DNA of 61,066 nucleotides, the filler included. It is 3 parts of 3 records of this genome, joined end to end, with 100 filler letters (N's around TTAATTAATTAA, not from the genome) between each part and the next. Parts side by side here need not be neighbours in the genome. Positions count along the whole stretch, not along the records: positions 1 to 26,208 come from SRR20825006_1588; 2 more parts are not named here. One strand, given 5' to 3'. The notes beneath the pieces are model-generated. The model was not told the origin of the DNA and did not search any database. It worked only from the letters and a program-made list of their open reading frames with translations. The position numbers were made by a program, and so were the translations under genes. The first letter of the stretch is position 1; each line of letters opens with the position of its first letter. Shown here piece by piece: positions 6,598 to 53,831 of this stretch.

Positions 6598-9500
6598 TCA
6601 AGGCGCCACGCAGCGCAACACGACACATCCATCACCACCCACGCCCAGGAAGTCACTGCCAGCGCCAGCGTCGATGCTGTTGGCGCCCTGACAACGGCTG
6701 TAGTCGGCGTTCGAGGTCCCTCCCGGAACCCAGTTGAAGGTGTTGGGGTCTTCGATCGAGTCATACGGCGTGAGCCCTGCGGGGAGCGTCCCGTAGGCGC
6801 CGGGGTTTTCACCCGCGCCGCCCGGATCACCTGCGCCACCGCCGCCCTGGTTGCCGCTCCCGACCGCACCTGCGTAGCCGGCCGTGGTTGTGCCTGCGGT
6901 CGTCATCACGCTCATGCTCATCCCATCGGCAAACTCGGAGGCGCCAGCGCCAGCAGGGACAACAAACGACTGCGTCGCGCTGCCAGTGATTTGAACGCTC
7001 GTCAAACCGCCGCCGCCACCTGGATCAGACCCCATCGAGTTGAAGCCACCTTCGCCACCGTTGGCGGCAGTGCCCAGGTAGGAACCTGCCCCCTGCGTGG
7101 TAAACCCGGAGCTTCCACCCTGACCGAGCCAGACCGTGACGACATCTCCAGGAGCGACCGTCAGCGTGCCCTCGACATAGCCGCCCGCGCCGCCGAGGTT
7201 GCTCGCGAAGCCCATAAAGTCATCGCCGCCACCAGCAGCACCCCACGCCTGGACGTAGAGGCTCGTACAGCCAGCCGGGATCGTGTAGGTCCCCGAAGCG
7301 GTCGTGCCATCGGTGACAGGTTGGTCGATAAAGTACTGACCTGCGCCGCACGTGCCCGAAGCGTTCGAGCAGTTGCCGGAGTTCGCGCCGCACACGCAGT
7401 CATTGCCCGCACAATCCGAATCGAGCGTGCAGCTCTGCCCGGCCATGCACGCACCACATGTCATGCCTCCGCAATCGACGTCGGTCTCGTCCTGGTTCTT
7501 CGTGCCATCGCCGCAGAGGTTCATGGAGCATGTCCCGTTGTCACAGGCCGCGCCCATGGCGCAATCAGCGGACTGATTGCAAGACTGCCCGATCATGCAC
7601 TTCGTCGCGCACGAGCCGCCGCAGTCGACATCACCCTCGGAGGGGTCCTTCATGTTGTTGGAGCAAGAGGCGTCCTTGCAGGTGCCATTGTCACAGGTCA
7701 AACCCGCCTGACAGTCCGCGTCTCCGCCGCACATCTTGTCCTCACCGCACTTGTTCACGCAGACCGCGCCGCAGTCGACGTCCGCTTCGCCAGGATCTTG
7801 CGTGCCGTTGTTGCAGTCAGGGCTCGCGCACTGGCTGTTCACGCACAGGTTGCCCATGACGCAATCGCCATCCATCGTGCAGCTCTGCCCACCGACGCAT
7901 CGGTCGCAGCTCGAGCTGCCGCCGCAGTCGATATCCGACTCGTCCGCATCCTTCATGTTGTTGCCACAAGATGCTGGAACGCAGACATTGCCCGAGCAAA
8001 CCGCCCCGGAGGTGCAATCCGCGGTCTCGTTGCAGTTCTTGCCAAGCTGGCATGCGAAGGCGCAGGAGGTCCCGCAATCGACGTCGACCTCATCTGGGTC
8101 CTTCATATTGTTGCCGCAGGTCTCGGGGTAGCACCCGTTGTTCACGCAGAAGAGACCTGTGCCGCAGTCAGACGTGTTCAGACAGAACTGAGCGCGCGCG
8201 CAACGGGGGCACGAGCTCGTGCCACCACAGTCGACATCGGTCTCACCAGCGTCCTTGGTGTCATTGCCACAGGTCGCGGGAAGGCAGGTGTTGTCGATGC
8301 AGGTCGACGAGGCGCAGTCGGTGCCCGCGGTGCACGCCTTGCCATCTCCGCAAGCGCCGCACACCGAGCTACCGCCGCAGTCGACGTCGGACTCGTTCAT
8401 ATCCTTGGTGTTGTTGTTGCAGACCTCGATCTTGCAGGTCGAGCCGACGCATGCGTAGCCCGAGGCCGTGTCGCAATCACTGCTGGCCTGGCAGGACTCT
8501 CCAGCATCGCACCTCGCGGTGCACGAGGATCCACCGCAATCGACGTCGGTCTCGTCCTGGTTTTTGGTCATATCCGAGCACGTCCCCGACTCGCGGCAGA
8601 CGTACCCAGTGCAGGTCAACCCGCTCGCGCAATCCGAGGTTGTCAGGCAGGTGTTATTCGCCCTGCAGCCACCGCAGGTCCCCCCGCAATCGTGCCCGGT
8701 TTCGTCCTGGTTTTGGCGATTGTCTGAACAGGTCGCCACGCCATTGCGATAGTCCGCCTTACTCACACTGAAGAAGACCTCCTTCAGGTCAGGCCTGGCG
8801 ACAAACAGATACCCTGCGTCGGTGAACTCGTTGTCTCGGAAACGATAGCGTCCGATATCGAGCTCTGCGCGAATCGGTTTGGTTTCGCCCAGTGTGTAGC
8901 CGACCTTGTAGTCCGTCCTCTTCGGGTTTTGAATCACCCTGATCGCCCAGTAGTTCTGGTAAACCCCCAGATCTGTGTGCTGCTTTTTGATATCGATGAG
9001 CTGGATCGGGCCACCATCGACGCTGAGCGCCATCTTGATCGGATCGCCTTCGAGTTTTTGTTTGTTTTCCTCGAGGTGCAAGGAGTTCAGATAGAAGTTC
9101 AGCTTGACGATCATCCGGTTTTCGTTTGGCTCCGGGCAATCGATCTTGAGCGTTCCATCCGCGCGCATCGGCGATTCGGCGGTTGGCCCTGCGTATTGAC
9201 TCGTCGAAACCACCGGCGAGCAAGCCTCGGCGCTGACAAACTCGTAGGAGTACGCCTCCCCGATCTTGTAGCGCAGCGTGCCATCGACAGGTTCGATCGA
9301 GACCGTCTTGTTGCGGCCGTCGAGGTTCACGACGAGCCAATAGCTCGAACCTGCGTCAGGCAAGCGATCGAACTCGGCATAGATCGGAAACTTCACGCGG
9401 CACTTGTTCTCGACACAAATGGCCGTGTCACAATCTGCTGCGGTGTTGCATCCGGGCGTATCGAGCCCCGACGTCGCCACGCACGCATCACAAATACTGC

Positions 9501-11277
9501 CGCCGCAATCGACGCCGGTTTCGCCAGGACTCTGAGAGCCGCTGTCACAATCAGGGTCGAGGTCTGCGCACAGGTTGCCCTCGCAGAAACCCGCCGCGCA
9601 GTCGCCGTCATTCAAGCAGGCCTTGCCCAGACCACAGGTCGCGCCGCAAGAGCCGCCGCAATCCTGATCCGTCTCGGAGCTGTCCTTCATCCCGTTGCTA
9701 CAAATCGCAGCGTCAGCAGGATCGGTATCGAGCGTGACCCGATTCTCCATGCCGGGGTTCACCGTAGCGCGCGAATCCTCGCCATTGGAGGTGTAGTCGA
9801 ACGAGTTCGTCTTCGAGTTGCCCTCGCCATCCTGAGTCGTCGAGGTGACGTTCACATCTGAGCCTTCGGGCAACCCGGAGACAGACACGCTGGTGGTGCC
9901 ATCCTCGTTGTTGACAAGATCGACCGAGACGTCGCCGTTGGAGCCCTCGACCGTGACTGTCACAGTGGTGCGCGTTCCATCTCCATTGATACGCGTCGAC
10001 GAGATGGTCACGCCCCCTTCATTGTTCTTGGAGGAGTATGAGACGTCGCCGTTCTCTCCAAACGTCGCGGCGTCACCGACCTTGGGGTTGTCCGCCTCGA
10101 GGTTGCTCGAGAAGCCCAACCCGTAGTTTTGCACCGAGGCCTTGTTGGTGTCACCCGAAGCGGTCGACCTTACGCCATCTGCAGCGGTCACGGCGATATT
10201 GCGCTTTGGCTTGAAGCCCTTGGCGAGCGTGGCCTGGTTGACGATCGCGACCGCCGTGCCGCAACGAGGACACCTCGAGAACGCCGGGCGAACCCAATCA
10301 CCCTCGGCCTCGATCACCTCGCCGTCACGAATACCAGTCTCCTCGCCGTCCTCGTTCGAGGCCACGATGGAGACGCCTGAATAGGTCTGCGCCAGATACT
10401 CCGAGTCCTCGTCGAATGGCGCGGGCAAGGCGCCGAGACGATCCTCGATGGCGGCGAAGTAGAGGTAGTTCGGCTTCTCTTCGGTGCTCTCGTAGACGAT
10501 CGGGGTCCCGTCGATTCCGGGGACCTCGTAGCGCCATGTGTTGGCCTTCGGGTGAACCTCGAGGACCTGCTCGCGCGAGGGGAAGTTGTTGTCATAGACA
10601 CGCAGCCAGTAGGTATCCTCGCGCTCGTTATCCTTGAAATAACCGATAGGCGTGAGCGCGTGACCTCTGGCAAAGCCAACCTCTGTGCGTTGTGCGATGG
10701 CGAGGCGATAGTGCTTCTCGCTCTCCTCGGCGAGCGCCTCGGCGAGGAATGGCATCACATCCGCGGCGAGGTAGCGCACATCCGCCTTGGCGGCATCGGG
10801 CACCGCCTGAGTCGCCGCCCAGTAGGCGAACTCCTCCTGGAGCGCGATGTTCCCATCGAGCGTCAGGTCGGCGACGTTCTCGGCGCCGTAATCCTTTGGA
10901 TCGAGCTGTCCTGAATGAAACATCAACGAGAGGACCGCGAAGCCCTCGCTTCGCCCCTGATCCAGGGTCTTATTCGTCCCACGCATCCAGAGGTTGGCGC
11001 GAGGTGTCAGGACGCAAGGATCTGAGCCCTCGACGCACACGGCCTCGGCGCCAAACATGCGCTGCATCACCTGTGGGTTGATTTGTGTGGCGACCCCGGC
11101 GCCTCCGAAGTTCTCGAAGGTGAAGGCTTCGGTGACAAAGTCAAAGCCGGAGTACACCTGAGGAGGAACCGCCTTTTGACCTGGAGGCGGGTCTGGGTCT
11201 GACCCACACGAAGAACATGAGGTCAGCAGTGACAGCGTCAACGCCATCAACGCTGGAGCGATACGCGCTCTGAGCAT
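6598..11277 (-). CDS. Giant lipoprotein (~1559 aa): papain-like N-terminal domain, 11 Cys-rich ETDxDCGG repeats, C-terminal glycine-rich domain
   Basis: Start reassigned to ATG 11277 (AAGGAG RBS), lipobox LLTS-C; repeats C-x2-G/N-x-KD-x2-E-x-D-x-DCGG-x-C; C-terminal VQAWGAAGGG...GGAGGYVEGTL glycine-rich fold. Confidence 0.8.
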   Translation of the reverse strand: MLRARIAPALMALTLSLLTSCSSCGSDPDPPPGQKAVPPQVYSGFDFVTEAFTFENFGGAGVATQINPQVMQRMFGAEAVCVEGSDPCVLTPRANLWMRGTNKTLDQGRSEGFAVLSLMFHSGQLDPKDYGAENVADLTLDGNIALQEEFAYWAATQAVPDAAKADVRYLAADVMPFLAEALAEESEKHYRLAIAQRTEVGFARGHALTPIGYFKDNEREDTYWLRVYDNNFPSREQVLEVHPKANTWRYEVPGIDGTPIVYESTEEKPNYLYFAAIEDRLGALPAPFDEDSEYLAQTYSGVSIVASNEDGEETGIRDGEVIEAEGDWVRPAFSRCPRCGTAVAIVNQATLAKGFKPKRNIAVTAADGVRSTASGDTNKASVQNYGLGFSSNLEADNPKVGDAATFGENGDVSYSSKNNEGGVTISSTRINGDGTRTTVTVTVEGSNGDVSVDLVNNEDGTTSVSVSGLPEGSDVNVTSTTQDGEGNSKTNSFDYTSNGEDSRATVNPGMENRVTLDTDPADAAICSNGMKDSSETDQDCGGSCGATCGLGKACLNDGDCAAGFCEGNLCADLDPDCDSGSQSPGETGVDCGGSICDACVATSGLDTPGCNTAADCDTAICVENKCRVKFPIYAEFDRLPDAGSSYWLVVNLDGRNKTVSIEPVDGTLRYKIGEAYSYEFVSAEACSPVVSTSQYAGPTAESPMRADGTLKIDCPEPNENRMIVKLNFYLNSLHLEENKQKLEGDPIKMALSVDGGPIQLIDIKKQHTDLGVYQNYWAIRVIQNPKRTDYKVGYTLGETKPIRAELDIGRYRFRDNEFTDAGYLFVARPDLKEVFFSVSKADYRNGVATCSDNRQNQDETGHDCGGTCGGCRANNTCLTTSDCASGLTCTGYVCRESGTCSDMTKNQDETDVDCGGSSCTARCDAGESCQASSDCDTASGYACVGSTCKIEVCNNNTKDMNESDVDCGGSSVCGACGDGKACTAGTDCASSTCIDNTCLPATCGNDTKDAGETDVDCGGTSSCPRCARAQFCLNTSDCGTGLFCVNNGCYPETCGNNMKDPDEVDVDCGTSCAFACQLGKNCNETADCTSGAVCSGNVCVPASCGNNMKDADESDIDCGGSSSCDRCVGGQSCTMDGDCVMGNLCVNSQCASPDCNNGTQDPGEADVDCGAVCVNKCGEDKMCGGDADCQAGLTCDNGTCKDASCSNNMKDPSEGDVDCGGSCATKCMIGQSCNQSADCAMGAACDNGTCSMNLCGDGTKNQDETDVDCGGMTCGACMAGQSCTLDSDCAGNDCVCGANSGNCSNASGTCGAGQYFIDQPVTDGTTASGTYTIPAGCTSLYVQAWGAAGGGDDFMGFASNLGGAGGYVEGTLTVAPGDVVTVWLGQGGSSGFTTQGAGSYLGTAANGGEGGFNSMGSDPGGGGGLTSVQITGSATQSFVVPAGAGASEFADGMSMSVMTTAGTTTAGYAGAVGSGNQGGGGAGDPGGAGENPGAYGTLPAGLTPYDSIEDPNTFNWVPGGTSNADYSRCQGANSIDAGAGSDFLGVGGDGCVVLRCVAP
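7360..8735 (-). repeat. Nine tandem ~48-aa Cys-rich coding repeats (E-x-D-x-DCGG); two more copies at ~9400-9705
   Basis: Seen in the translation, e.g. CSDMTKNQDETDVDCGG, CGNDTKDAGETDVDCGG, CGDGTKNQDETDVDCGG; DNA units recur as GCA(A/G)TCGAC. Confidence 0.85.
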
Positions 11278-11652
11278 GAAAGCACTCCTTGGCTCCGCTT
11301 CTTGGTCGTGCCAACGAGTCATCCACAGACAAGCCCCCCCGTGCCTCTCTTGTGAGCGATTCGCGGGCCTGGCCAAGTCAGAGGATCACACCACACACAC
11401 CGCTCGTGCTTCACGCACGGAAGTCTGCGGAGAAGATCATCTGAAACATTGTTTCGAACAGGAATTTTCTACCGACGATCCTACCTAACGAAACAGAATA
11501 ACTCAAGACAATATACTCACGAGTGATACTCGATAACTCCGTGTTCCGAGTGTCGGCGCTCTGTTCGTAAGGTGTTCAAAGGTCGCATCGACACGGAATG
11601 GCTGCTATTATAGCCCTAAATGCTCCAACACGAGTTCCCCCGAGGTGCCCCC

Positions 11653-12615
11653 ATGAAACCATCGCGCCAGCTCCTCTTGTTGATCCTGGTCACGTTCATC
11701 CTCCCCGCTTGCCTCACTGGCCCTGCCGGGAGCATCTTCGGGCGAGGAGGAGATGATGAGGATCAAGAGGAGCAGATCGGTGGGATGCAGGTCGCGCCTG
11801 ATATGCCCGAAGCGCCAGACGCGAATCACATGTCTGGAGCCGATATGCCCGAGGATATGCCTGGCCCTACAGACATGCCTGCTCCTGTAGACATGCCCTC
11901 CCCCCCAGAGGATATGAAAACCTGCCAGGATCAATGCACGGCAGGCACCTTCGACTGCCAGGGACCACGACTTTACACCTGCGAGAACGATCCAGGGACG
12001 GGATGCCTCGGCTTTGTCGAGGTGGCGCAATGCGGGCAGGATCAGTTCTGTGACAGCAACGCCGGAGAATGCGCCTGTCAGGTGGACGAGATGTGCACGC
12101 CGAACGAGCGACGTTGCATGGGGAGGGACGCGGTCGAGGTCTGCACCAGGAGTGAATCAGGTTGCACGACCTGGGAGATCGAGCGCACCTGTGATGGCCG
12201 CAGCTATTGCGACAACAACCTGCAGAACTGCCGCTGCCCTGCGAGTGATTGCACGAGCGCGGGCAGCACGAGCTGCAACGGCCCATCGGTCGTCGTCTGC
12301 GCACAGGACCCGGCCTCGGGATGCATTTACCCGGACACCACGCAGTCGACGCGTTGCGGCGACACTGAATATTGTGAAAATGGAGCCTGCCAGACGTGCG
12401 AAGAGCAGTGCACACCTGGAACAACGGTGTGTGTAGCTCCCGGCGAGATCCGAAACTGCATCAAGACCTCGAGTGACAAATGCCCGAGGCTCTCCTCGCC
12501 GCTCTCTTGCGGCACCACCAACCAGTGCCTCGGCAGGCCGAGCTGCTCGCAGGATGGCGACTGCGCGACCTGCGGCACGAGGAACGGGCAGACCTGTTAC
12601 TACTGCCCGCAGTGA
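11653..12615 (+). CDS. Cysteine-rich lipoprotein (~320 aa) with DM-repeat linker
   Basis: ATG 11653 preceded by GAGGTG; lipobox FILPA-C; PDMP/EDMP/VDMP linker; about four Cys-rich repeats (C-x2-G/N-x3-C-x-G). Confidence 0.8.
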   Translation: MKPSRQLLLLILVTFILPACLTGPAGSIFGRGGDDEDQEEQIGGMQVAPDMPEAPDANHMSGADMPEDMPGPTDMPAPVDMPSPPEDMKTCQDQCTAGTFDCQGPRLYTCENDPGTGCLGFVEVAQCGQDQFCDSNAGECACQVDEMCTPNERRCMGRDAVEVCTRSESGCTTWEIERTCDGRSYCDNNLQNCRCPASDCTSAGSTSCNGPSVVVCAQDPASGCIYPDTTQSTRCGDTEYCENGACQTCEEQCTPGTTVCVAPGEIRNCIKTSSDKCPRLSSPLSCGTTNQCLGRPSCSQDGDCATCGTRNGQTCYYCPQ

Positions 12616-12618
12616 TGT

Positions 12619-13068
12619 TCAGATTTGATAATTGGGCGTGAAGTCTTCGCCGGCGAGCTCGGGCACCGCGTCCGCGATCTGCTGGATCGAATAACGCCCC
12701 AGGATGCGAATCGTCGCCTCGCGGATCTCGCCCCACACCGGGATAAACGCGGCCTGACGCTCGGTCTGGTCACCATCCGAGGTGCGGTCGGCATACGTCT
12801 GCGGCGCGATCGGGCCATCCAGGTGCCGGATGACATCGAGCAACATGATCTCGCTGGCTGGACGGCTTAAAAAGTAACCGCCGTTCGCGCCGCGCTTGCT
12901 GCGAACAAACCCACCACGCTTGAGATCGCCCATGATCCCCTCGAGGAACTTGTTGGGGAGACTCTCCTCGTCCGCGATCGCCTGAATACTCATCGGATCG
13001 CTGGTGCGCGCTCCGGCGAGCGTCACCAAAGCCCGCAGTCCATACATGGTGCGTGCGCTGATATCCAT
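12619..13068 (-). CDS. Rrf2-family transcriptional regulator (Cys-free, CymR-like)
   Basis: YGLRALVTLA, wHTH, VRSKRGANGGYFLSRPASEI wing motif; no cysteines; C-terminus NYQI. Confidence 0.9.
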   Translation of the reverse strand: MDISARTMYGLRALVTLAGARTSDPMSIQAIADEESLPNKFLEGIMGDLKRGGFVRSKRGANGGYFLSRPASEIMLLDVIRHLDGPIAPQTYADRTSDGDQTERQAAFIPVWGEIREATIRILGRYSIQQIADAVPELAGEDFTPNYQI

Positions 13069-13345: not shown

Positions 13346-14743
13346 TCAATCCTGGTCGCACAGGTCTCCGACCCCGTCCTTATCCTCGTCGGCCTGACCG
13401 GGGTTGAAGAAGTTGGGGCAGTTGTCGCAACGGTTGGCGATGCCATCGACGTCCGAGTCTGGCCCGGTGCAAGAGGTCGAGCAGGCGTCACCGATGCCGT
13501 CGCCATCCGCGTCTGCCTGGTCAGTGTTGGCGATGGTCGGGCAGTTATCGCACGAGTTGCCGATGCCATCGTTGTCGTTGTCCTCTTGCTGGTCATTGGG
13601 GCGCTGCGCGCAGTTGTCACACGCGTTGCCGATGCCGTCGCCATCCTGGTCGGTCTGGTCCTCGTTGGCGAGCCCGGGGCAGTTATCACACTGGTCCCCT
13701 ACCCCGTCGCCGTCGCCATCCGTTTGTTCGCGATTGGGGATGTCAGGGCACACATCGCAGGCATCGCCGATGGTGTCACCGTCGGCGTCACGCTGTGCTG
13801 GATCGGCATCCTCGGGGCAGATATCACACACATCACCGACACCATCTTCGTCGGTGTCGAGTTGATCCTCGTTGGCGGTGCCGAGGCAGTTATCACAGAC
13901 ATCACCCGCGCCATCACCATCCCCATCACGTTGCTCGATATTTGGCACCAACGGGCAGTTATCGACGCTGTTGTCCTTGGAGTCGCCGTCGATATCCTGG
14001 TCACAGGCATCGCCGAAGTCGTCATCGTCGAGGTTGGACTGATCGGTGTTGCGCACGTCGGGGCAGTTGTCGCACACGTCCCCCACGTCATCGAGGTCGA
14101 CGTCTTCCTGATCGGGGTTTGGCGAGAAGAAGCAGTTGTCACACGCGTCGCCGAAGCCATCCTCGTCGATGTCCTCTTGCAGTGGATCGAGCGCGGTGGG
14201 ACAGATATCACACACATCGCCGATGCGGTCGCCGTCGCCATCTGCCTGATCCGCGTTGGAGATCATCGCGCAGTTATCACACGCGTCACCGACGGTGTCT
14301 CCGTCGCCGTCCGCCTGATCCGGGTTATTGGCCAGCGGGCAGTTGTCATCGACATCCTCGACGCCGTCATCATCCGAGTCAGGATCGCAGGCGTCGCCCA
14401 GGCCGTCGCCGTCAACATCGGACTGGCCAGGGTTCGAGAGCCCGAGGCAGTTGTCACAGACATCGCCCGCGTTGTCGCCATCCTCGTCCGCCTGGTCGAG
14501 GTTGACGATCATGGGGCAGTTGTCGCAAGCGTCCCCCAAACCATCGAGGTCGGAGTCCACCTGATCCTTGTTGGAGACGGTGGGGCAATTGTCACGCGCG
14601 TCGCCGATCTCGTCGCCGTCAAAGTCAGCGCCCTTGCAACCAGTGGCGCCGAGCGTGGCCACCAGCGCAGAAATGACCAGCGCCCCCACGGTCCATCTCA
14701 GGGGCAATTGGCGCGTGATTCTGTTCCACATCCTGTGTTTCAT
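13346..14743 (-). CDS. Thrombospondin type-3 repeat lipoprotein (~465 aa)
   Basis: Start reassigned to ATG 14743 (MKHRMW); lipobox GATG-C; about 20 D-x-D-x-D-G-x-G-D-x-C-D-N-C-P units fill the mature protein. Confidence 0.88.
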   Translation of the reverse strand: MKHRMWNRITRQLPLRWTVGALVISALVATLGATGCKGADFDGDEIGDARDNCPTVSNKDQVDSDLDGLGDACDNCPMIVNLDQADEDGDNAGDVCDNCLGLSNPGQSDVDGDGLGDACDPDSDDDGVEDVDDNCPLANNPDQADGDGDTVGDACDNCAMISNADQADGDGDRIGDVCDICPTALDPLQEDIDEDGFGDACDNCFFSPNPDQEDVDLDDVGDVCDNCPDVRNTDQSNLDDDDFGDACDQDIDGDSKDNSVDNCPLVPNIEQRDGDGDGAGDVCDNCLGTANEDQLDTDEDGVGDVCDICPEDADPAQRDADGDTIGDACDVCPDIPNREQTDGDGDGVGDQCDNCPGLANEDQTDQDGDGIGNACDNCAQRPNDQQEDNDNDGIGNSCDNCPTIANTDQADADGDGIGDACSTSCTGPDSDVDGIANRCDNCPNFFNPGQADEDKDGVGDLCDQD

Positions 14744-14786
14744 CGCATCCTCGCCAGCGCCCAATCCATCGAGCGCTGCTTGCGCT

Positions 14787-15530
14787 TCAGATCTCGAAGA
14801 GGGGCTGAAGCAGGTGAAAAATACCTGGTTTATCGATCTGACCGCCGTTGGCGTAGCGCGCTTTCTCGATCTCGATCTCGATGGAGCCTTCGCGCTCGTC
14901 GAAGTCATTGCGGTAGCGCTGGATCACGCTCGGCTTGAACGGATCGAGCGCGACCCAGAGCAGGATCTCATCCTCCTGCTCATCGAACGCGATCTCAAGC
15001 GAGCGCTTGTGCGCCTTGATGGATGCGCCCGGCGTGAAGGTCATCCAAATGCCGTCCTCGTCCGCGCCAGCCTCGCGGTAGGTGAACCCGAACTGTGTCT
15101 GGATCGCCTCGACAACCGTCGAGATGATCGGGGACATCTTGATCTGGAGGACCTGCTCCTTGGTGATCGGGTTGGAGCCTTGCAAGGTCGCCACGGCGCG
15201 GAGTTTCCAGCCGAAGTTCCCGAGGCTCGGCGCGACCTGCGGAGGAATCTCCATATAAAAAGGCCACTCGTGCTTCTCGCCAGCCTGCAAGGAGATGCGC
15301 TCGGCGAGCACGAGGCCGTCGAAGACCTCCTGCATCTTCACGCCGTAATCATCGGGGAAGGTGTGGAGGAGCTCGAGGTTGACGGAGAAGACGTTGAGCG
15401 CCTTCTGCGCGTGCAACACGAGCTGCCCCTGGACCGTACCGCCCACGTGGCATCCTTCAGGTTGAACGCGGAGTTCGAACTCTCCCGTCGCCATCCCCAA
15501 CGTCTTCTTGATCGAATCGAGCAGCCCCAT
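14787..15530 (-). CDS. Spo0M-family (arrestin-like) protein
   Basis: ATG 15530 (MGLLDSIKKTLG) with GAGG; GGTVQGQLVL...ERISLQAGEKHEWPF..EIP..W.L pattern typical of Spo0M. Confidence 0.65.
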   Translation of the reverse strand: MGLLDSIKKTLGMATGEFELRVQPEGCHVGGTVQGQLVLHAQKALNVFSVNLELLHTFPDDYGVKMQEVFDGLVLAERISLQAGEKHEWPFYMEIPPQVAPSLGNFGWKLRAVATLQGSNPITKEQVLQIKMSPIISTVVEAIQTQFGFTYREAGADEDGIWMTFTPGASIKAHKRSLEIAFDEQEDEILLWVALDPFKPSVIQRYRNDFDEREGSIEIEIEKARYANGGQIDKPGIFHLLQPLFEI

Positions 15531-19109: not shown

Positions 19110-19198
19110 GTTGACTCCCGAGTCAACTTGCTCATATTGGATTGTCGAGTGATTCGGTAAGGATTAAGCATGCAATCCTGACCAAAACAATCAAGAAT
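19110..19198 (+). promoter_or_regulatory. Promoter/operator of the rrf2-cysteine operon: palindrome over a -35 box plus two Rrf2 (IscR type-1-like) sites
   Basis: GTTGACTC-CC-GAGTCAAC (19110-19127) contains TTGACT; AATCCTGACCAAAACAATCAAGAAT (19174-19198) matches ATASYYGACTRWWWYAGTCRRSTAT at 20/25; inverted copy at 19141-19165 matches at 19/25. Confidence 0.65.
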
Positions 19199-19202
19199 AA
19201 GA

Positions 19203-19685
19203 ATGAAACTCTCCAACCGCGCCATATACGGTATCCGCGCGCTCTTTGACCTCGCCTACCACGGCGGACAGGGGCCGGTGCAGATCCGAGAAATCGCCGA
19301 GCGCGAGGACATCCCGCTGCGCTTCCTCGAGCAGATCTTCCAGGATCTTCGGCGCGCGGAGTTGGTCGAGAGCAAGCGCGGCCCCAAGGGGGGCTTCCTG
19401 CTCTCGCGCGAACCCAAGGACATCACGCTGGCGCAGGCGCTCGAAGCGCTCGAAGACGCGCCGCAGTTCTACTCTCCGGGTGAAGAGGCGGTATCGCCTT
19501 CATCCGCCGCCCAGAGTGACAGGGGCGCGCCAGCGTCCTGGCTTGTCCCCGACGCGGTTTGCGCGCAAGCCTTCGCCGAGATCTCACGCATGTTCAAGGG
19601 GATCACGCTCGCTGATATCATGGAACGTGGGGAGGAACTTGGCCTCCAGCGCGATTGCTACGAGAGCTTTACTTATGTCATCTGA
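19203..19685 (+). CDS. Rrf2-family transcriptional regulator (CymR-like)
   Basis: MKLSNRAIYGIRALFDLA, IAEREDIPLRFLEQIF, VESKRGPKGGF; lacks the IscR three-Cys cluster motif; ends FTYVI. Confidence 0.92.
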   Translation: MKLSNRAIYGIRALFDLAYHGGQGPVQIREIAEREDIPLRFLEQIFQDLRRAELVESKRGPKGGFLLSREPKDITLAQALEALEDAPQFYSPGEEAVSPSSAAQSDRGAPASWLVPDAVCAQAFAEISRMFKGITLADIMERGEELGLQRDCYESFTYVI

Positions 19686-20628
19686 GCAGACACGTAGCCA
19701 ACCCGCGCCCTCGACCACGCTGGCGAGCGGACCTCGCGTCAGCCGCGTCAGCGAGTTGATCGGAAACACACCGCTTATCAAGCTGCGAAAGCTTGGCAAG
19801 GAGGGGGGCGCCCCGATTTACGTCAAGCTCGAGAACCTCAACCCCTCGGGCTCCATCCGCGACCGCTACATCGCCGAGATCCTGCAACGCAGCGTCGAGG
19901 CGGGGCAGACGATGTCGGGCGACTCGATCGCGCTGGCGGGGATGAACGACTCGGCGGTCTCGGCATCCCTGATCGGGCATCAACTCGGGCTCATCGTGCA
20001 CGTCTTCGCGCCAAAGGACGCATCGCGAAGGCTCGCTCACCTGGTCCTCAAGCTCGGCGCCAAGATCACCTGGACGGACGCAGAAGGTGGCCTCGATGGC
20101 GCCATCGAGGCGGCCGCATCCTGGGCGAGGGAAGCGCCTGACAGGTTGTACGTGGACGCGTTTCGCCGCCAGGCGATCAAGGATGCCTACCAGGGAATCT
20201 CCGATGAGATGTTGCTCGCGTTGCGAGGACAACAGCTCGGCGCGTTCGTCACCTCCATCTCGACCGGGGGCACGTTCCGAGAGGTCGCGCCCTACCTGCG
20301 GCGCTCCTTCCCGATGCTTCGCATGGGAGGCGCCGTGCTCATCGATGTCGAAACAAAGGCGCTCGCGGCGAACCCCAACAACATCATCGAGCATATCTCT
20401 CTGGAGCGAGCATGGGAGGTGCGCGACCAGGTCGCGCGAACTCAGGGGCTCCTGCTTGGCCCGAAGGGCTCGGCATGCGTCGCGCTCGCCATGGACATCC
20501 AGGAGCAAATCCCTGGAGATCAGGTCATCGTCGCGCTCAACCCGGACGCCGGGCAGCGCTACCTCGGATGGGAAGACAAGCCGCTTTTCAAAGACACCTA
20601 CATCGAGGGTTGTCCCTCCAAACAATAA
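19675..20628 (+). CDS. Cysteine synthase-like fold-type II protein lacking the PLP-binding lysine (probable pseudoenzyme)
   Basis: ATG 19675 overlaps rrf2; IGNTPLIKL, KLENLNPSGSIRDR (canonical SVKDR), PDAGQRYL; TSGNTG loop replaced by GMNDSA. Confidence 0.85.
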   Translation: MSSEQTRSQPAPSTTLASGPRVSRVSELIGNTPLIKLRKLGKEGGAPIYVKLENLNPSGSIRDRYIAEILQRSVEAGQTMSGDSIALAGMNDSAVSASLIGHQLGLIVHVFAPKDASRRLAHLVLKLGAKITWTDAEGGLDGAIEAAASWAREAPDRLYVDAFRRQAIKDAYQGISDEMLLALRGQQLGAFVTSISTGGTFREVAPYLRRSFPMLRMGGAVLIDVETKALAANPNNIIEHISLERAWEVRDQVARTQGLLLGPKGSACVALAMDIQEQIPGDQVIVALNPDAGQRYLGWEDKPLFKDTYIEGCPSKQ

Positions 20629-20761: not shown

Positions 20762-21043
20762 ATGTCAGTCCAAGTTCGCATCCCGACGCCGTTGCGCAAG
20801 TTCACAAACAGCCTCGAATCCGTCGCCGTCGAAGGCACCACCGTCGGAGAGGCGCTCCAGAACCTCGCCGAGAATCACCCCGGCATCAAACAGCGCCTGT
20901 TCACTGACGAGGGCAAGGTTCGCCGCTTCGTCAACATCTTCGCCAATGAAGAGGACATCCGCTTCCTCGAGCAGCTCGACACGACGCTCGAAGATGGCGA
21001 CGAGCTCTCGATCGTGCCAGCGATCGCGGGAGGCGCGGCGTGA
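20762..21043 (+). CDS. MoaD/ThiS-family sulfur-carrier protein (CysO-like) with C-terminal GG-AA
   Basis: VRIPTPLRKFT, RRFVNIFANEEDIRFL..LDT.L.DGDELSIVPAIAGG then AA; AAGGAG RBS. Confidence 0.9.
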   Translation: MSVQVRIPTPLRKFTNSLESVAVEGTTVGEALQNLAENHPGIKQRLFTDEGKVRRFVNIFANEEDIRFLEQLDTTLEDGDELSIVPAIAGGAA

Positions 21044-21981
21044 CCCCACACCGCTCCTGGACAAGTCGCAACTCGGGCGTCCACCCGCCCAAGCGCTACA
21101 ACAACCTCATCGAGATGATCGGCAACACGCCGCTGGTCAAGCTCCAGGGGGTCACGCGCGACCTCCCGAAGGAGGTCGAGGTCTGGGCCAAGCTCGAGTT
21201 CATGAACCCGGGCGGCTCCGTCAAGGACCGCCCCGCACGCCAGATCATCCTCGACGCCATCGCCGACGGAAAGCTCGGCTCCGGGCAGCGGTTGATCGAC
21301 GCCACGAGCGGAAACACCGGCATCGCCTACGCCATGCTCGGCGCGGCGCTCGATGTGCCGATCACGCTCGTGATGCCAGGCAATGTCTCTGAACAACGCC
21401 GCCACATCGTCACGACCTTTGGCGCAGAGATCATCCTCTCCGACCCCATGGCGGGGAGCGATGGCGCCATCACGCTCGTGCGAGAGTTGATGGAGCAGGA
21501 CACCGAGGGGAAGTACTTCTATGCAGACCAGTACTCGAACCCCTCCAATCCTCTGGCGCATACGCTGACCACCGCGCCAGAGATCTGGAAGCAAACCGAC
21601 GGGCGCGTCACCCACTTTGTCGCGTGCACTGGCACCAGCGGCACCGTCATGGGCACAGGGCGCGGACTCAAAGGATACTCCGAAGAGATCAAGGTCATCG
21701 GCGCGCAACCCGCCGACGCCTTCCACGGGCTCGAAGGGTTAAAGCATATGCCATCGAGCATCGTCCCCAGGATCTACCACGAAGACCTCCTCGATGATGT
21801 CCTGTGGATCGAGACCGAGGAGGGGTGGGATATGGCAGAGCAGCTCGCCATCGACGAGGGGCTCGCTGCCGGAAACTCTGGCGGCGCCAACGTCGTCGCG
21901 GCCCTGAGGATCGCGAGCGAGCTCGAGAAAGGGGTCGTCGTCACCGTCATCTGCGATCACGCCGATCGCTACATGGATTGA
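21040..21981 (+). CDS. cysM: PLP-dependent cysteine synthase (CysM-like)
   Basis: Intact NPGGSVKDR, ATSGNTG, GTSGT, GNSGGA motifs; lies between sulfur-carrier and JAMM genes; GTG overlaps the upstream stop. Confidence 0.8.
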   Translation: MTPHRSWTSRNSGVHPPKRYNNLIEMIGNTPLVKLQGVTRDLPKEVEVWAKLEFMNPGGSVKDRPARQIILDAIADGKLGSGQRLIDATSGNTGIAYAMLGAALDVPITLVMPGNVSEQRRHIVTTFGAEIILSDPMAGSDGAITLVRELMEQDTEGKYFYADQYSNPSNPLAHTLTTAPEIWKQTDGRVTHFVACTGTSGTVMGTGRGLKGYSEEIKVIGAQPADAFHGLEGLKHMPSSIVPRIYHEDLLDDVLWIETEEGWDMAEQLAIDEGLAAGNSGGANVVAALRIASELEKGVVVTVICDHADRYMD

Positions 21982-21993
21982 GCGAGGCTGGAT

Positions 21994-22497
21994 GTGAGCA
22001 TTTGGAGCGATGAGAACCTCGAAGACATCATCGAGTGGGTCGAGGCTGCCTACCCCGAGGAGGGGTGTGGATTGATCCTCGAGAAGCCTGACGGCGCCAT
22101 CGAGGTCATGCGTTGTGAGAACCTCGCCAACAAGTACCACGCGCTCGATCCCGAGACCTACCCGCGCACCGCAGAGACCTTCTACATGATCAACCCCATG
22201 GAGTTTGTCAAAGCGGAGCGACGAGAGGATCGGGTGGCCGTGGTCTTTCACAGCCACGCCGACGTGGGCGATTACTTTAGCGAGGAAGATGTCGCTGGCG
22301 CCACGATGCCCCGCTTTGATCCCGAGGATCCGATCGAACCCGCGCACCCCGGCGTCGACTACCTCGTCGTATCGGTGCGCGAAGGAAAGGCAGACCACGC
22401 CACCCTCTTTCGCTTCGACGACGCGACGCAAACGTTCGCTGGCGTCACCAAAATCTCCATCGACGGCGACAACTACAGCATCAGCGAGAGCGCCTGA
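21994..22497 (+). CDS. JAMM/MPN+ metallopeptidase (Mec-like CysO-cysteine peptidase)
   Basis: YPEEGCG and FHSH-x7-S-x2-D JAMM motif (FHSHADVGDYFSEED). Confidence 0.88.
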   Translation: MSIWSDENLEDIIEWVEAAYPEEGCGLILEKPDGAIEVMRCENLANKYHALDPETYPRTAETFYMINPMEFVKAERREDRVAVVFHSHADVGDYFSEEDVAGATMPRFDPEDPIEPAHPGVDYLVVSVREGKADHATLFRFDDATQTFAGVTKISIDGDNYSISESA

Positions 22498-24052
22498 AGA
22501 GCTCGAAGGCGAACTCCTCGTCGACCTTTTCCCAATCCGAAGACTCCAGGAGAGCCCGGCTCAAGGCCGGGCTCTCCTGTTTGTCGATCAGGATCGTCCC
22601 CACCTCGTGCGCCTCGAGCTTCGCGCCCCACCCCTCCTTCGCCGCCATGATCGCGAAGTAATCCTCCCACACATCCTCGGGGATGATGCCAAAGCGCTGG
22701 TCGACAAATGCAACCTGCGCGGGCGCCTCTCTCGCGAGCGAGAACTCGAGCGCGCCGCCGAGCGCCTGCGCGTGGAAGAGGCGCCCCTTATAGCCCTTGT
22801 TGGAGAGGTCCCCGATGATCCTCAGCGGGTGCTGGCGATCCATCGTCTCGTAGCCCTTGTAGGGCAAGAACCCTTCGCTCGCGCTCGGGTCCCCTCCAGC
22901 GGTCAAGAGCGCATGACCGGGTAATCCAGGCAACAGCACCAGAAACGCGAGCATGAGGACACACGACAGGACGAGGTTGATCGATCCTTCGGTCCTCGTC
23001 ACCTCGGCGTCTTCTTCGCCCGCGGAGCCAGCGAGAAGAGGCACGCGCGTGGTCAGTGGGGCGAGGCAAACGACCAGCGAGAGCCCCCACCAGATGGCGC
23101 TCCGAGAGCTCGTCGCCGCGAGGACAGCGAGCCCCAACAGCGGCACGAGCGCGCGCCAACCGACATCCCTGTGGCGCCAGCATCCGAACAGCGTGGACGC
23201 CACGAGTGACACGTAGAAGAAGATGCCCACGGCATCGAGCGCGAATGGCTCCCACTCGGTCACGCTCCCACCCGACATCTTCGATGAGAGCGAGAACGCA
23301 TAGGTCCATACATGCACGCCATATGGATTGAGCAAGGTCGCCAACACGATCACAGTCACCGCCCCGCCCCATCGCAGTAACCTCCCCCGGTCGACCTCGC
23401 GGCTTTCGATAAAGCGATCGAGCGCTTCGCCAAAGCCAACCGCGCCGACGAGCAAGGGCGCGAGCAGGAATGACCCGTGTACGTTTGCCCAGACCACCGC
23501 GGCGGCGCACGCGAGCCCCATCCAGCGCCAGCGCAGCTTTCGCTCGGAGACGAGCAGGCTGACGCCGAGCACACAAATCATCAGCGGGTAGGCGAACATT
23601 CTGGTGCGAATGGAGATCCCAGAGGATGCGAGGATAACCCCCAGGCCAGCGAGCGCGCCGAGCGCGCGCGGCGCGTGCTTTCGACGCGTGGCGAACTCGA
23701 GCGCGATAAGCACCGCGCCAGAGATCAGGAGCGCGTGCAGCCACACCATCGCGCCGTGCCCGAGGTGTTCGACGACCTCCCACATCGACCTCTGCGCCAG
23801 CCATGGTTGATTCATGAACGGCGCGTCCGCCGGGATCGTGTAGAGGAAGAGGTTCGAGGCTGGGATATGGCCGAGCTGCTCCATCGCCCTCCCCTGCACG
23901 ATCGGCCACCAGTAATCATTGGGAGGGTTTGGCACGAGCGCCACGCGCGCCACGACGCACATCGGGATCAACAACCAGAGCGCATCGAGTGAGAGCGGCC
24001 AGCGAAACCAGCGCCTGAGTCCTGTCGGTGATGTCTGCTCTTCTGAAGTCAC
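22481..24052 (-). CDS. Polytopic membrane protein, possible GT-C glycosyltransferase
   Basis: About 11-12 hydrophobic segments; early-loop NDYWW, QPWL, WANVHGSF motifs; soluble C-terminal domain. Confidence 0.6.
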   Translation of the reverse strand: MTSEEQTSPTGLRRWFRWPLSLDALWLLIPMCVVARVALVPNPPNDYWWPIVQGRAMEQLGHIPASNLFLYTIPADAPFMNQPWLAQRSMWEVVEHLGHGAMVWLHALLISGAVLIALEFATRRKHAPRALGALAGLGVILASSGISIRTRMFAYPLMICVLGVSLLVSERKLRWRWMGLACAAAVVWANVHGSFLLAPLLVGAVGFGEALDRFIESREVDRGRLLRWGGAVTVIVLATLLNPYGVHVWTYAFSLSSKMSGGSVTEWEPFALDAVGIFFYVSLVASTLFGCWRHRDVGWRALVPLLGLAVLAATSSRSAIWWGLSLVVCLAPLTTRVPLLAGSAGEEDAEVTRTEGSINLVLSCVLMLAFLVLLPGLPGHALLTAGGDPSASEGFLPYKGYETMDRQHPLRIIGDLSNKGYKGRLFHAQALGGALEFSLAREAPAQVAFVDQRFGIIPEDVWEDYFAIMAAKEGWGAKLEAHEVGTILIDKQESPALSRALLESSDWEKVDEEFAFELFRRSR

Positions 24053-26208: not shown

Positions 26209-26308
26209 NNNNNNNNNNNNNNNNNNNNNNNNNNNNNNNNNNNNNNNNNNNNTTAATTAATTAANNNNNNNNNNNNNNNNNNNNNNNNNNNNNNNNNNNN
26301 NNNNNNNN
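26209..26308. other. Artificial contig-joining linker
   Basis: 44 N + TTAATTAATTAA (stops in all six frames) + 44 N; genes on both sides are truncated. Confidence 0.97.
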
Positions 26309-26916
26309 AGCATGGTCGCCATGTTGGGCGCGATCATGCCCGAGCCCTTGGCGATACCGGCCAGATTGACGTCCGCGCCGTCGATCTTGGTCGCAAGCCC
26401 TGCGCCCTTGGGAAAAGTATCAGTCGTCATGAAGGCGCGTGCCGCAGCTTCCCAGTCAGGAGCCGAAAGCTTGCCCGCAAGATCGGGCACGAACGCGCCG
26501 ACATAGTTCGGGTCTGGCAAGGGTTCGCCAATCACGCCAGTCGCCGCGAGGAAACATTCCTGTTTTTCCACGCCGAGCGTTTCGGTCAGCGCCTTCAGGG
26601 TGGCCTCGTTCTTGAGCACACCCTTGGCACCGGTGAAGGCATTCGAGTTGCCCGAATTGGCGATCAGGGCCCGGGCCTTGCTGGCACCTGACTTCAAGGC
26701 CTCCCGGCACCAGATGACATCTGCCGACGCGGTATGAGACAGCGTGTACACGCCGGCGCAATGGGTGCCTTCCTCAAAGCTGAACAGGAACACGTCATCG
26801 CGCGTCATGCCACGTGCCGCGTAGAAGCCGCGCGAACCGGTGGCCGCGCGCACGCCCTTGACGACCGGCAGGTCTGGAAAGCGAGCCGGGGCGAAGGGAG
26901 ATGGGGTCAGTTTCAA
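26309..26916 (-). CDS. argJ: Ornithine acetyltransferase/N-acetylglutamate synthase ArgJ, 3'-truncated
   Basis: NSGNSNAFTG, TGVIG, MTTDTFPK, GIAKGSGMIAPNMATM. Confidence 0.95.
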
Positions 26917-53731: not shown

Positions 53732-53831
53732 NNNNNNNNNNNNNNNNNNNNNNNNNNNNNNNNNNNNNNNNNNNNTTAATTAATTAANNNNNNNNNNNNN
53801 NNNNNNNNNNNNNNNNNNNNNNNNNNNNNNN
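53732..53831. other. Artificial contig-joining linker
   Basis: 44 N + TTAATTAATTAA + 44 N, identical to the first linker. Confidence 0.97.

Follow-up and report, generated by a model that had tools for sequence, protein, structure and literature searches.

What does a cysteine synthase homologue do once its Schiff-base lysine has been replaced, if it is retained between a transcriptional regulator and the genes of a cysteine biosynthesis route? This question is raised by an operon in a 61,066-nt stretch of DNA (referred to here as the window; coordinates count along the whole stretch), the host of which is a marine Bradymonadales-like bacterium. Five plus-strand genes lie in tandem, rrf2, psCysK, cysO, cysM and mec, and the second of them (19675–20628, + strand) encodes a 317-aa CysK-fold protein, here denoted psCysK. 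Among moonlighting enzymes CysK is a textbook case, since CysE, CymR and a contact-dependent inhibition (CDI) toxin all dock at its active site. A CysK-fold paralogue that is without catalysis yet under strong selection at a CymR-linked position would be a natural separation-of-function experiment: in its cleft, features needed for binding partners could be told apart from those needed for chemistry, and the short list of pseudoenzyme regulators would gain a bacterial metabolic example.

A CysK paralogue without its catalytic residues

Residue 62 of psCysK is Arg (codon CGC, 19858–19860), and aligns with the Schiff-base Lys of the NPGGSVKDR motif in the cysM paralogue encoded at 21040–21981. 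The Asn loop reads AGMNDS in place of TSGNTG, the Gln-bearing QF-N-P-x-N-P segment is replaced by VDAFRR, and the G-x-S-G-G-A motif by GPKGSA, with K264 at the position of the Ser that contacts N1 of pyridoxal 5′-phosphate (PLP). The motifs GNTPL, STGGT (the PLP phosphate loop) and PDAGQRYL are retained. A first-pass annotation of the window had described a full-length 317-aa CysK homologue overlapping rrf2, with its Schiff-base Lys changed to Arg, its substrate loop and PLP-contact motif replaced and the three other motifs intact; this description was borne out by the position of the gene, which overlaps rrf2 by 11 nt, by the alignment with the cysM paralogue and by the sequence itself.

The PALP domain is present in psCysK (PF00291, 130 bits; cut-off 35), and the protein falls below the NCBIfam equivalog cut-offs for cysKM (120.2 versus 344 bits), cysK (119.7 versus 351 bits) and cysM (105.5 versus 394 bits). 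The AlphaFold (AF2) model has a predicted local distance difference test (pLDDT) score of 85.7, and its top Foldseek matches are the Staphylococcus aureus CysK structures 8t2c and 8srt (template modelling score 0.76), a peptide complex among them. The canonical motifs that psCysK has replaced are held by all nine CysK proteins encoded in the corresponding operons of relatives, and by both canonical CysK proteins of relatives.

When a clustered protein collection was searched with psCysK, 417 relatives came up, and the list taken from them comprised the best 120 (48–93% identical); named sources among the matches listed were Bradymonas, Lujinxingia, Persicimonas and 'Myxococcota bacterium'. In these best 120 of 417, Arg at the Schiff-base site and K264 are each kept without exception (120/120), Lys being found at the former site only in the CysM control; such uniformity of the Arg is far beyond chance. 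An alignment of 30 psCysK sequences shows K264, D92, R164, T197, G198 and T200 to be invariant. Exhaustive searching of cluster representatives returned only 8 clusters at E < 1e-30, followed by a sharp fall to ordinary cysteine synthases. Five full-length distant representatives (37–45% identical) likewise carry Arg, and distant members with the Arg show degenerate versions of the phosphate loop (SITSRAVL, SVTSDDAW, PASLEGTF).

Could psCysK be a decaying pseudogene, or its Arg a sequencing error? Nothing beyond the missing catalytic Lys speaks for either. Against them, 30 of 32 homologous genes have an uninterrupted reading frame, the exceptions being L013, with one stop at the end of its tblastn stretch, and L018, which was left out, its stretch having run into cysM; one TGA was also counted in the psCysK of genome G379. 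Ratios of nonsynonymous to synonymous substitution (dN/dS, Nei–Gojobori method) are 0.050 for the pair L006/L010 (dS 0.31), 0.049 for L028/L030 (dS 0.53), and 0.11–0.16 in most of the other unsaturated pairs (dS below about 1.3). The Arg codon of the 32 genes is CGC in 14, CGG in 11, CGA in 4, CGT in 1 and AGA in 2, so that the codon drifts and the residue stays. In addition, the same sequence is found at ≥99% identity in contigs of many independent runs. Since Arg is family-wide, purifying selection is evident and the Arg codons vary, decay and sequencing error were rejected, and we give them practically no chance of being correct. The earlier view that a sequencing error is unlikely therefore stands, and the proposed check on whether the Lys-to-Arg change is conserved under purifying selection came out positive. 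psCysK is a non-canonical CysK paralogue that has lost its catalytic residues and is conserved under selection.

In a tree built from 15 of the 30 aligned psCysK sequences, nine operon CysK, two canonical CysK and nine CysM sequences, psCysK forms a single clade with a stem of 3.99 substitutions per site and short inner branches, a shape that points to a burst of change followed by constraint. Because of this long branch, a CysK-like and a CysM-like origin are not decidable from the tree. The Protein Atlas holds only generic PALP clusters for psCysK, and the family is without an entry of its own in the libraries searched, its members being named 'cysteine synthase A' or 'PLP-dependent enzyme' in the sources. 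Given these enzyme names and the low cysK and cysM scores, the family is currently mis-annotated.

The place of psCysK in the operon

To what position in the operon has this protein come? Ten long-contig loci of the same Rrf2 were chosen, not at random, from Myxococcota genomes that lack psCysK. In nine of them Rrf2 is followed directly by cysK and then by cysO, cysM and mec. All nine operon cysK genes keep SVKDR, TSGNTG, GTGGT and GIS[AS]GA, and the proteins of five such genomes pass the cysK equivalog cut-off with 376–397 bits. Since an intact cysK follows the same Rrf2 in these relatives, psCysK holds the place of a working CysK coupled to the Ile-tailed regulator, and we regard this synteny as the strongest new argument. 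The relatives without psCysK carry two to four CysK paralogues each, so specialisation of the operon copy may have preceded its loss of catalysis.

The operons of these other Myxococcota thus have the same gene order as the window and begin with the same Ile-tailed Rrf2. They differ in that their second gene encodes an intact CysK, whereas the window has the Arg-bearing pseudoenzyme, and in that a ThiF-type E1 may lie between cysK and cysO. This E1 was identified by Pfam (PF00899) in L047 (6319–7080), and open reading frames of ~250 aa were noted by eye at this place in six more of the nine; within the loci, to which the search was confined, no ThiF-like match was found in the window or in 33 psCysK loci. 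In six of the ten loci (L047 among them, at 7378–7671), an open reading frame of ~97–137 aa between cysO and cysM has a ThiF-like N-terminus and no Pfam match.

The Rrf2 tail and the role of psCysK

What might a CysK-fold protein without catalytic residues bind? The adjacent regulator gene, rrf2 (19203–19685, + strand), encodes a 160-aa winged helix-turn-helix protein of the Rrf2 family (PF02082, 102 bits). It had been proposed to be CymR-like, to lack the Cys triad of IscR and to end in FTYVI. The ending was read directly, and the missing triad was confirmed in a 35-member alignment, where Cys occurs in no column in more than 18 of the 35 members. Tyr158 and Ile160 are invariant in an alignment of 35 sequences, and a terminal Tyr-x-Ile, usually YVI, is shared by 119 of the 120 homologues listed; the taxa among them are Bradymonadales, and also Polyangium, Chondromyces and Byssovorax. 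The absent triad and the invariant tail support a CymR-like assignment at the level of sequence. The CymR model NF047409 matches residues 1–85 only (70 bits; cut-off 195). In the structural model, the last 15 residues form a coil after the dimerisation helices (pLDDT about 60), and the tail is predicted to be flexible. It reads E-S-F-T-Y-V-I here and G-F-V-Y-V-I in relatives, an aromatic-x-aromatic-x-Ile pattern shared with the tail of S. aureus CymR.

rrf2 and psCysK are translationally coupled. The start codon of psCysK lies within TAT-GTC-ATC-TGA, the codons for the terminal Tyr-Val-Ile and the stop of rrf2, which gives the 11-nt overlap, and the same arrangement is found in 13 of 15 junctions.

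There is precedent for the CysK cleft as a receptor of such tails. The C-terminal Ile of CysE sits in the CysK active site in the cysteine synthase complex, and CysK also activates the CdiA-CT toxin. Both systems resemble the one proposed here in that the cleft receives ...x-Ile tails of partners, and differ in that CysK is catalytically competent there. The closer parallel is the CymR–CysK pair of Bacillus subtilis and S. aureus, in which the gene for an Rrf2 protein without an Fe–S cluster is likewise linked to genes for cysteine biosynthesis and for a CysK-fold protein. However, the partner there is an active PLP enzyme, whereas in the linked protein here Schiff-base Lys, Asn loop and N1 Ser are all missing. 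Tanous et al. 2008 are said to have found that O-acetylserine is sensed through CysK chemistry in that system.

A 2024 preprint shows crystallographically that the active site of S. aureus CysK takes up the tail of CymR (...DGYMFYI), with a dissociation constant (KD) of 25 nM; T73, Q145 and the backbone of N76 and T77 hold the carboxylate of the tail Ile, the side chain of which packs on PLP, F146 and T181 (bioRxiv 10.1101/2024.09.19.614015). The two tails, ...GYMFYI as given there and ...SFTYVI here, are both aromatic-rich and end in Ile. F163 and T200 of psCysK, both conserved, match the packing residues named in the preprint, and a new invariant pair, Arg164/Arg165, stands beside them.

We hypothesize that psCysK is a non-enzymatic binding subunit, the cleft of which takes the Tyr-x-Ile tail of a CymR-like Rrf2 so that psCysK acts as co-repressor or sensor, a role that we put forward tentatively and at somewhat below even chances. 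psCysK would either descend, as an inactive form, from a cysteine synthase or have replaced one, and would be kept for binding within an rrf2–(cysK)–cysO–cysM–mec module, with a binding function inherited from a CymR-linked CysK. Its former active-site cleft would receive the tail of the overlapping YVI-type Rrf2, of a YQI-type Rrf2 encoded 6 kb off, or of both, and psCysK would set the repression of the operon through an operator-like box at 19140–19166. A ligand that is anionic or an amino acid, O-phosphoserine for example, might be the signal, with the retained phosphate loop, R62/K264/R164/R165 and D92 to hold it. We infer the physical binding of the tail, its effect on DNA binding and the identity of the small-molecule signal. 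A more specific form of the proposal, in which psCysK is a dedicated signalling subunit without PLP, its re-engineered cleft takes the tails of one or two CymR-like repressors, and an O-phosphoserine-like metabolite releases them and so couples the CysO/CysM route to its own transcription, we consider rather unlikely as a whole. If true, a separate gene would, for the first time, be devoted solely to what is a moonlighting function in CysK. In the literature searched, with subscription journals outside the coverage, no paper on a cysteine synthase pseudoenzyme and no link between Rrf2 and CysO/CysM was found. The conserved dead CysK paralogue is new; the CymR–CysK pair and the mec–cysO–cysM pathway are known.

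The second candidate tail belongs to a 149-aa Rrf2 (12619–13068, – strand) on the same contig, which ends in PNYQI. Its orthologues are 70–81% identical, and the ending P-[IN]-Y-Q-I is found in five relatives and the window copy. Among 301 Myxococcota genomes, 24 contain a YQI-type orthologue, and 22 of the 24 belong to the 25 with psCysK; both genes are thus found in 22 genomes, psCysK only in 3 and the YQI-type gene only in 2. In G199, the 23rd YQI-type genome, a fragment of psCysK is present at a contig end. Among genomes without an adjacent YVI-type gene, the YQI-type gene lies 5–22 kb from psCysK where one contig holds both. The YQI-type Rrf2 is possibly an alternative partner or regulator of psCysK.

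A number of findings weigh against a tail-binding role. Of the four donors that, according to the preprint, hydrogen-bond the tail carboxylate in S. aureus CysK, psCysK has lost two (T73 to G89, Q145 to A162), and an invariant Asp replaces the loop Asn. rrf2 lies directly upstream in only 13 of 32 psCysK loci of public genomes, where all 13 Rrf2 proteins end in Y-[VI]-I; counted by genome, psCysK is present in 25 of the 301 sampled Myxococcota and an adjacent YVI-type rrf2 in just 10 of these 25. The dN/dS values and pocket motifs of psCysK are alike with and without an adjacent rrf2. The same YVI-type Rrf2 is frequent among Myxococcota without psCysK, and in the psCysK genomes G326 and G404 the only Rrf2 seen is IscR-like, with a last residue other than Ile. 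In L027, L028, L031 and L058 a JAB-like gene is all that follows psCysK (a call that passes Pfam in L027, is weak in L058, has no family in L031 and comes from tblastn only in L028), and in L023 and L025 psCysK is followed by a divergent cysM-like gene alone, with a 4-nt overlap in L023. The co-occurrence of psCysK with the YQI-type gene may come from shared ancestry alone, both families being lineage-specific. Finally, a canonical cysK that scores above the model cut-off was present in all five psCysK genomes checked, in four cases beside cysE, so that its product offers the tail a possible alternative receptor and CysM has not simply taken over catalysis. The first-pass annotation had gone further than these data allow: a dedicated rrf2–psCysK pairing is at odds with the adjacency counts, with the JAB-only and cysM-like-only contexts and with a constraint independent of rrf2, and the transfer of catalysis to CysO/CysM/Mec is at odds with the canonical cysK genes. 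The co-fold of psCysK with Rrf2 scored 0.00 in a run without controls or supplied alignments, and counts neither for nor against binding.

The serious rival to the tail-receptor or co-regulator role, which remains our leading reading, assigns psCysK to the CysO/CysM/Mec route, as a non-catalytic accessory, and not to a regulator as its partner; we judge this rather unlikely, with the leading reading somewhat better placed. Such an accessory could be a 'prozyme'-like heterodimer partner of a tail-less CysM, or could hold the Gly-Gly tail of CysO or the CysO–cysteine adduct for the JAB peptidase. The steadiest neighbours of psCysK are indeed cysM and/or a JAB gene: cysM (≥50% identity) is downstream in 22 of 32 loci, the sequence ending after cysO in L024 and right after psCysK in L011 and L014. 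The 4-nt overlap in L023 joins psCysK to a cysM-like gene, and L027, L028 and L058 have the JAB-like gene only. All 21 CysM proteins of psCysK operons (L002–L034) stop after DHADRY-x-x-x, and all eight from other Myxococcota (L045–L054) bear a C-terminal APMKWE-x-x-Y-x-W extension, at the place of which psCysK has an invariant RYLGWE. The constraint on psCysK irrespective of rrf2 also fits an accessory. Set against this, neither CysO nor CysM was found beside psCysK in L027–L031, the conserved 11-nt coupling is to rrf2, with ~130 nt separating psCysK from cysO in the window, and the link between loss of the CysM tail and presence of psCysK is a single lineage event. To our knowledge, no such partner exists for any CysM. 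Trypanosomatid 'prozymes', the pseudoenzyme partners of active paralogues, offer a likeness in that a dead paralogue is under selection beside an active one; they come, however, from another phylum and enzyme family, and a heterodimer of psCysK is hypothetical.

It is also conceivable, with a clearly smaller probability than that of an accessory, that psCysK is still an enzyme or cofactor binder with altered chemistry, binding PLP non-covalently or via K264, or acting on a phosphorylated substrate. The phosphate loop [ST]TGGT is kept in the core of the family, K264 is invariant and next to the position of the pyridine ring, and the active-site positions are the most conserved. However, four of five canonical active-site motifs are replaced, PLP in its usual pose would be expected to collide with a Lys at the N1-Ser position, the phosphate loop has degenerated in the distant Arg-bearing members, and psCysK scores 120 bits against cut-offs of 344–394 for the cysK and cysM models.

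Two of the canonical cysK–cysE pairs (L055 of G154 and L060 of G162) come after a homocysteine-methyltransferase/MTHFR-like gene. The CysE of L060 has a long C-terminal extension and does not end in Ile, and the end of CysE in L055 is uncertain (a break in the match and possibly an over-extended frame). Where CysE does not end in Ile, the classical CysE–CysK complex may not form.

Promoter, expression and surroundings of the operon

How might the operon be controlled, and is it expressed? Upstream of rrf2, a putative –35 element (TTGACT, 19111–19116, + strand) is kept in 12 of 12 rrf2-first and 6 of 6 aligned psCysK-first promoters, which were compared by alignment on the –35. A putative –10 element (CATATT, 19133–19138, + strand) follows 16 nt past it. 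The conserved operator-like box (19140–19166, + strand), ~27 bp of the type ATTGYnnAGT-N6-GGTnGGGATT, is an imperfect inverted repeat over the –10/+1 region, and stands at an equal distance from the –35 in rrf2-first and psCysK-first operons. Since the same promoter and box precede psCysK-first operons without rrf2, a trans-acting regulator common to these genomes is argued for. The –35 of the window is also covered by a perfect 8+2+8 palindrome (GTTGACTC CC GAGTCAAC; 19110–19127, + strand), which is specific to the window. A further inverted repeat, CTGAC-N7-ATCAA (19178–19194, + strand), was seen by eye 9 nt before the rrf2 start codon; its counterpart of the type TTGAC-N7-GTCAA is present, likewise by eye, in most rrf2-first loci, and a search for GAC-N7-GTC in 19 loci without an adjacent rrf2 gave one match. 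No Rfam family scored above noise in the rrf2 leader.

The 3.4-kb operon stretch is present at ≥80% of sampled words in runs from many marine, estuary and vent samples, and at ≥29% in six RNA libraries; holders of the sequence come from 15 studies, and the organism is common in marine samples. Four marine metatranscriptome runs from three studies were aligned to the operon. It is covered by RNA-library contigs ≥99% identical, the rrf2/psCysK junction is bridged in all four runs, and a single 3.9-kb contig spans 19146 through mec. Contigs of runs X7 and X15, from one study, start at 19146 and 19147, about 8 nt past the –10, a weak hint of a transcription start; RNA-library contigs cannot prove a transcript or its ends, DNA carry-over being possible. 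One X7 contig is without 39 nt at 22532–22572, just past the mec stop, which is probably an intergenic strain difference.

The genes downstream of psCysK correspond to a known pathway. After a gap of ~130 nt (tens of nt or more in most relatives), cysO (20762–21043, + strand) encodes a 93-aa ThiS/MoaD-like sulfur carrier (PF02597, 64 bits) ending in AIAGG-AA, cysM (21040–21981, + strand) an intact PLP cysteine synthase with NPGGSVKDR and TSGNTG (TIGR01138, 354 bits; cut-off 394), and mec (21994–22497, + strand) a 167-aa JAMM/JAB peptidase-like protein (PF14464, 48 bits). The chemistry of this route would be that of the mec–cysO–cysM pathway. As in Mycobacterium tuberculosis, a Gly-Gly ThiS-like carrier, a Lys-bearing CysM and a JAMM peptidase are encoded in one operon; unlike there, the operon here has the additional dead CysK paralogue and a leading Rrf2, the carrier ends in GG-AA, CysM is without a C-terminal extension, and no ThiF-type E1 is found in the locus. 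Orthologues of the carrier end in AIAGG or in AIAGG and two variable residues, which suggests trimming by the JAB peptidase in some lineages only.

The second Rrf2 gene is flanked by genes for large Cys-rich repeat proteins and an Asp-repeat protein (6598–11376, – strand; 11620–12615, + strand; 13346–14908, – strand). The Asp-containing repeats recall thrombospondin type 3 repeats, and the flanking proteins probably serve a predatory bacterium at its surface or after secretion.

The window consists of three contigs and not of a single molecule; artificial linkers at 26209–26308 and 53732–53831, each made up of 44 N, TTAATTAATTAA and 44 N, separate them. The contig at 1–26208 is Bradymonadales-like. 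The contig at 26309–53731 (with SecA, FtsA, LigA, RecN, AmtB and others) matches genome G001 at 96–98% identity; this genome, a member of another class, is without psCysK, as are all 151 genomes of a class-level search around it. The assembly is either mixed or a concatenated bin.

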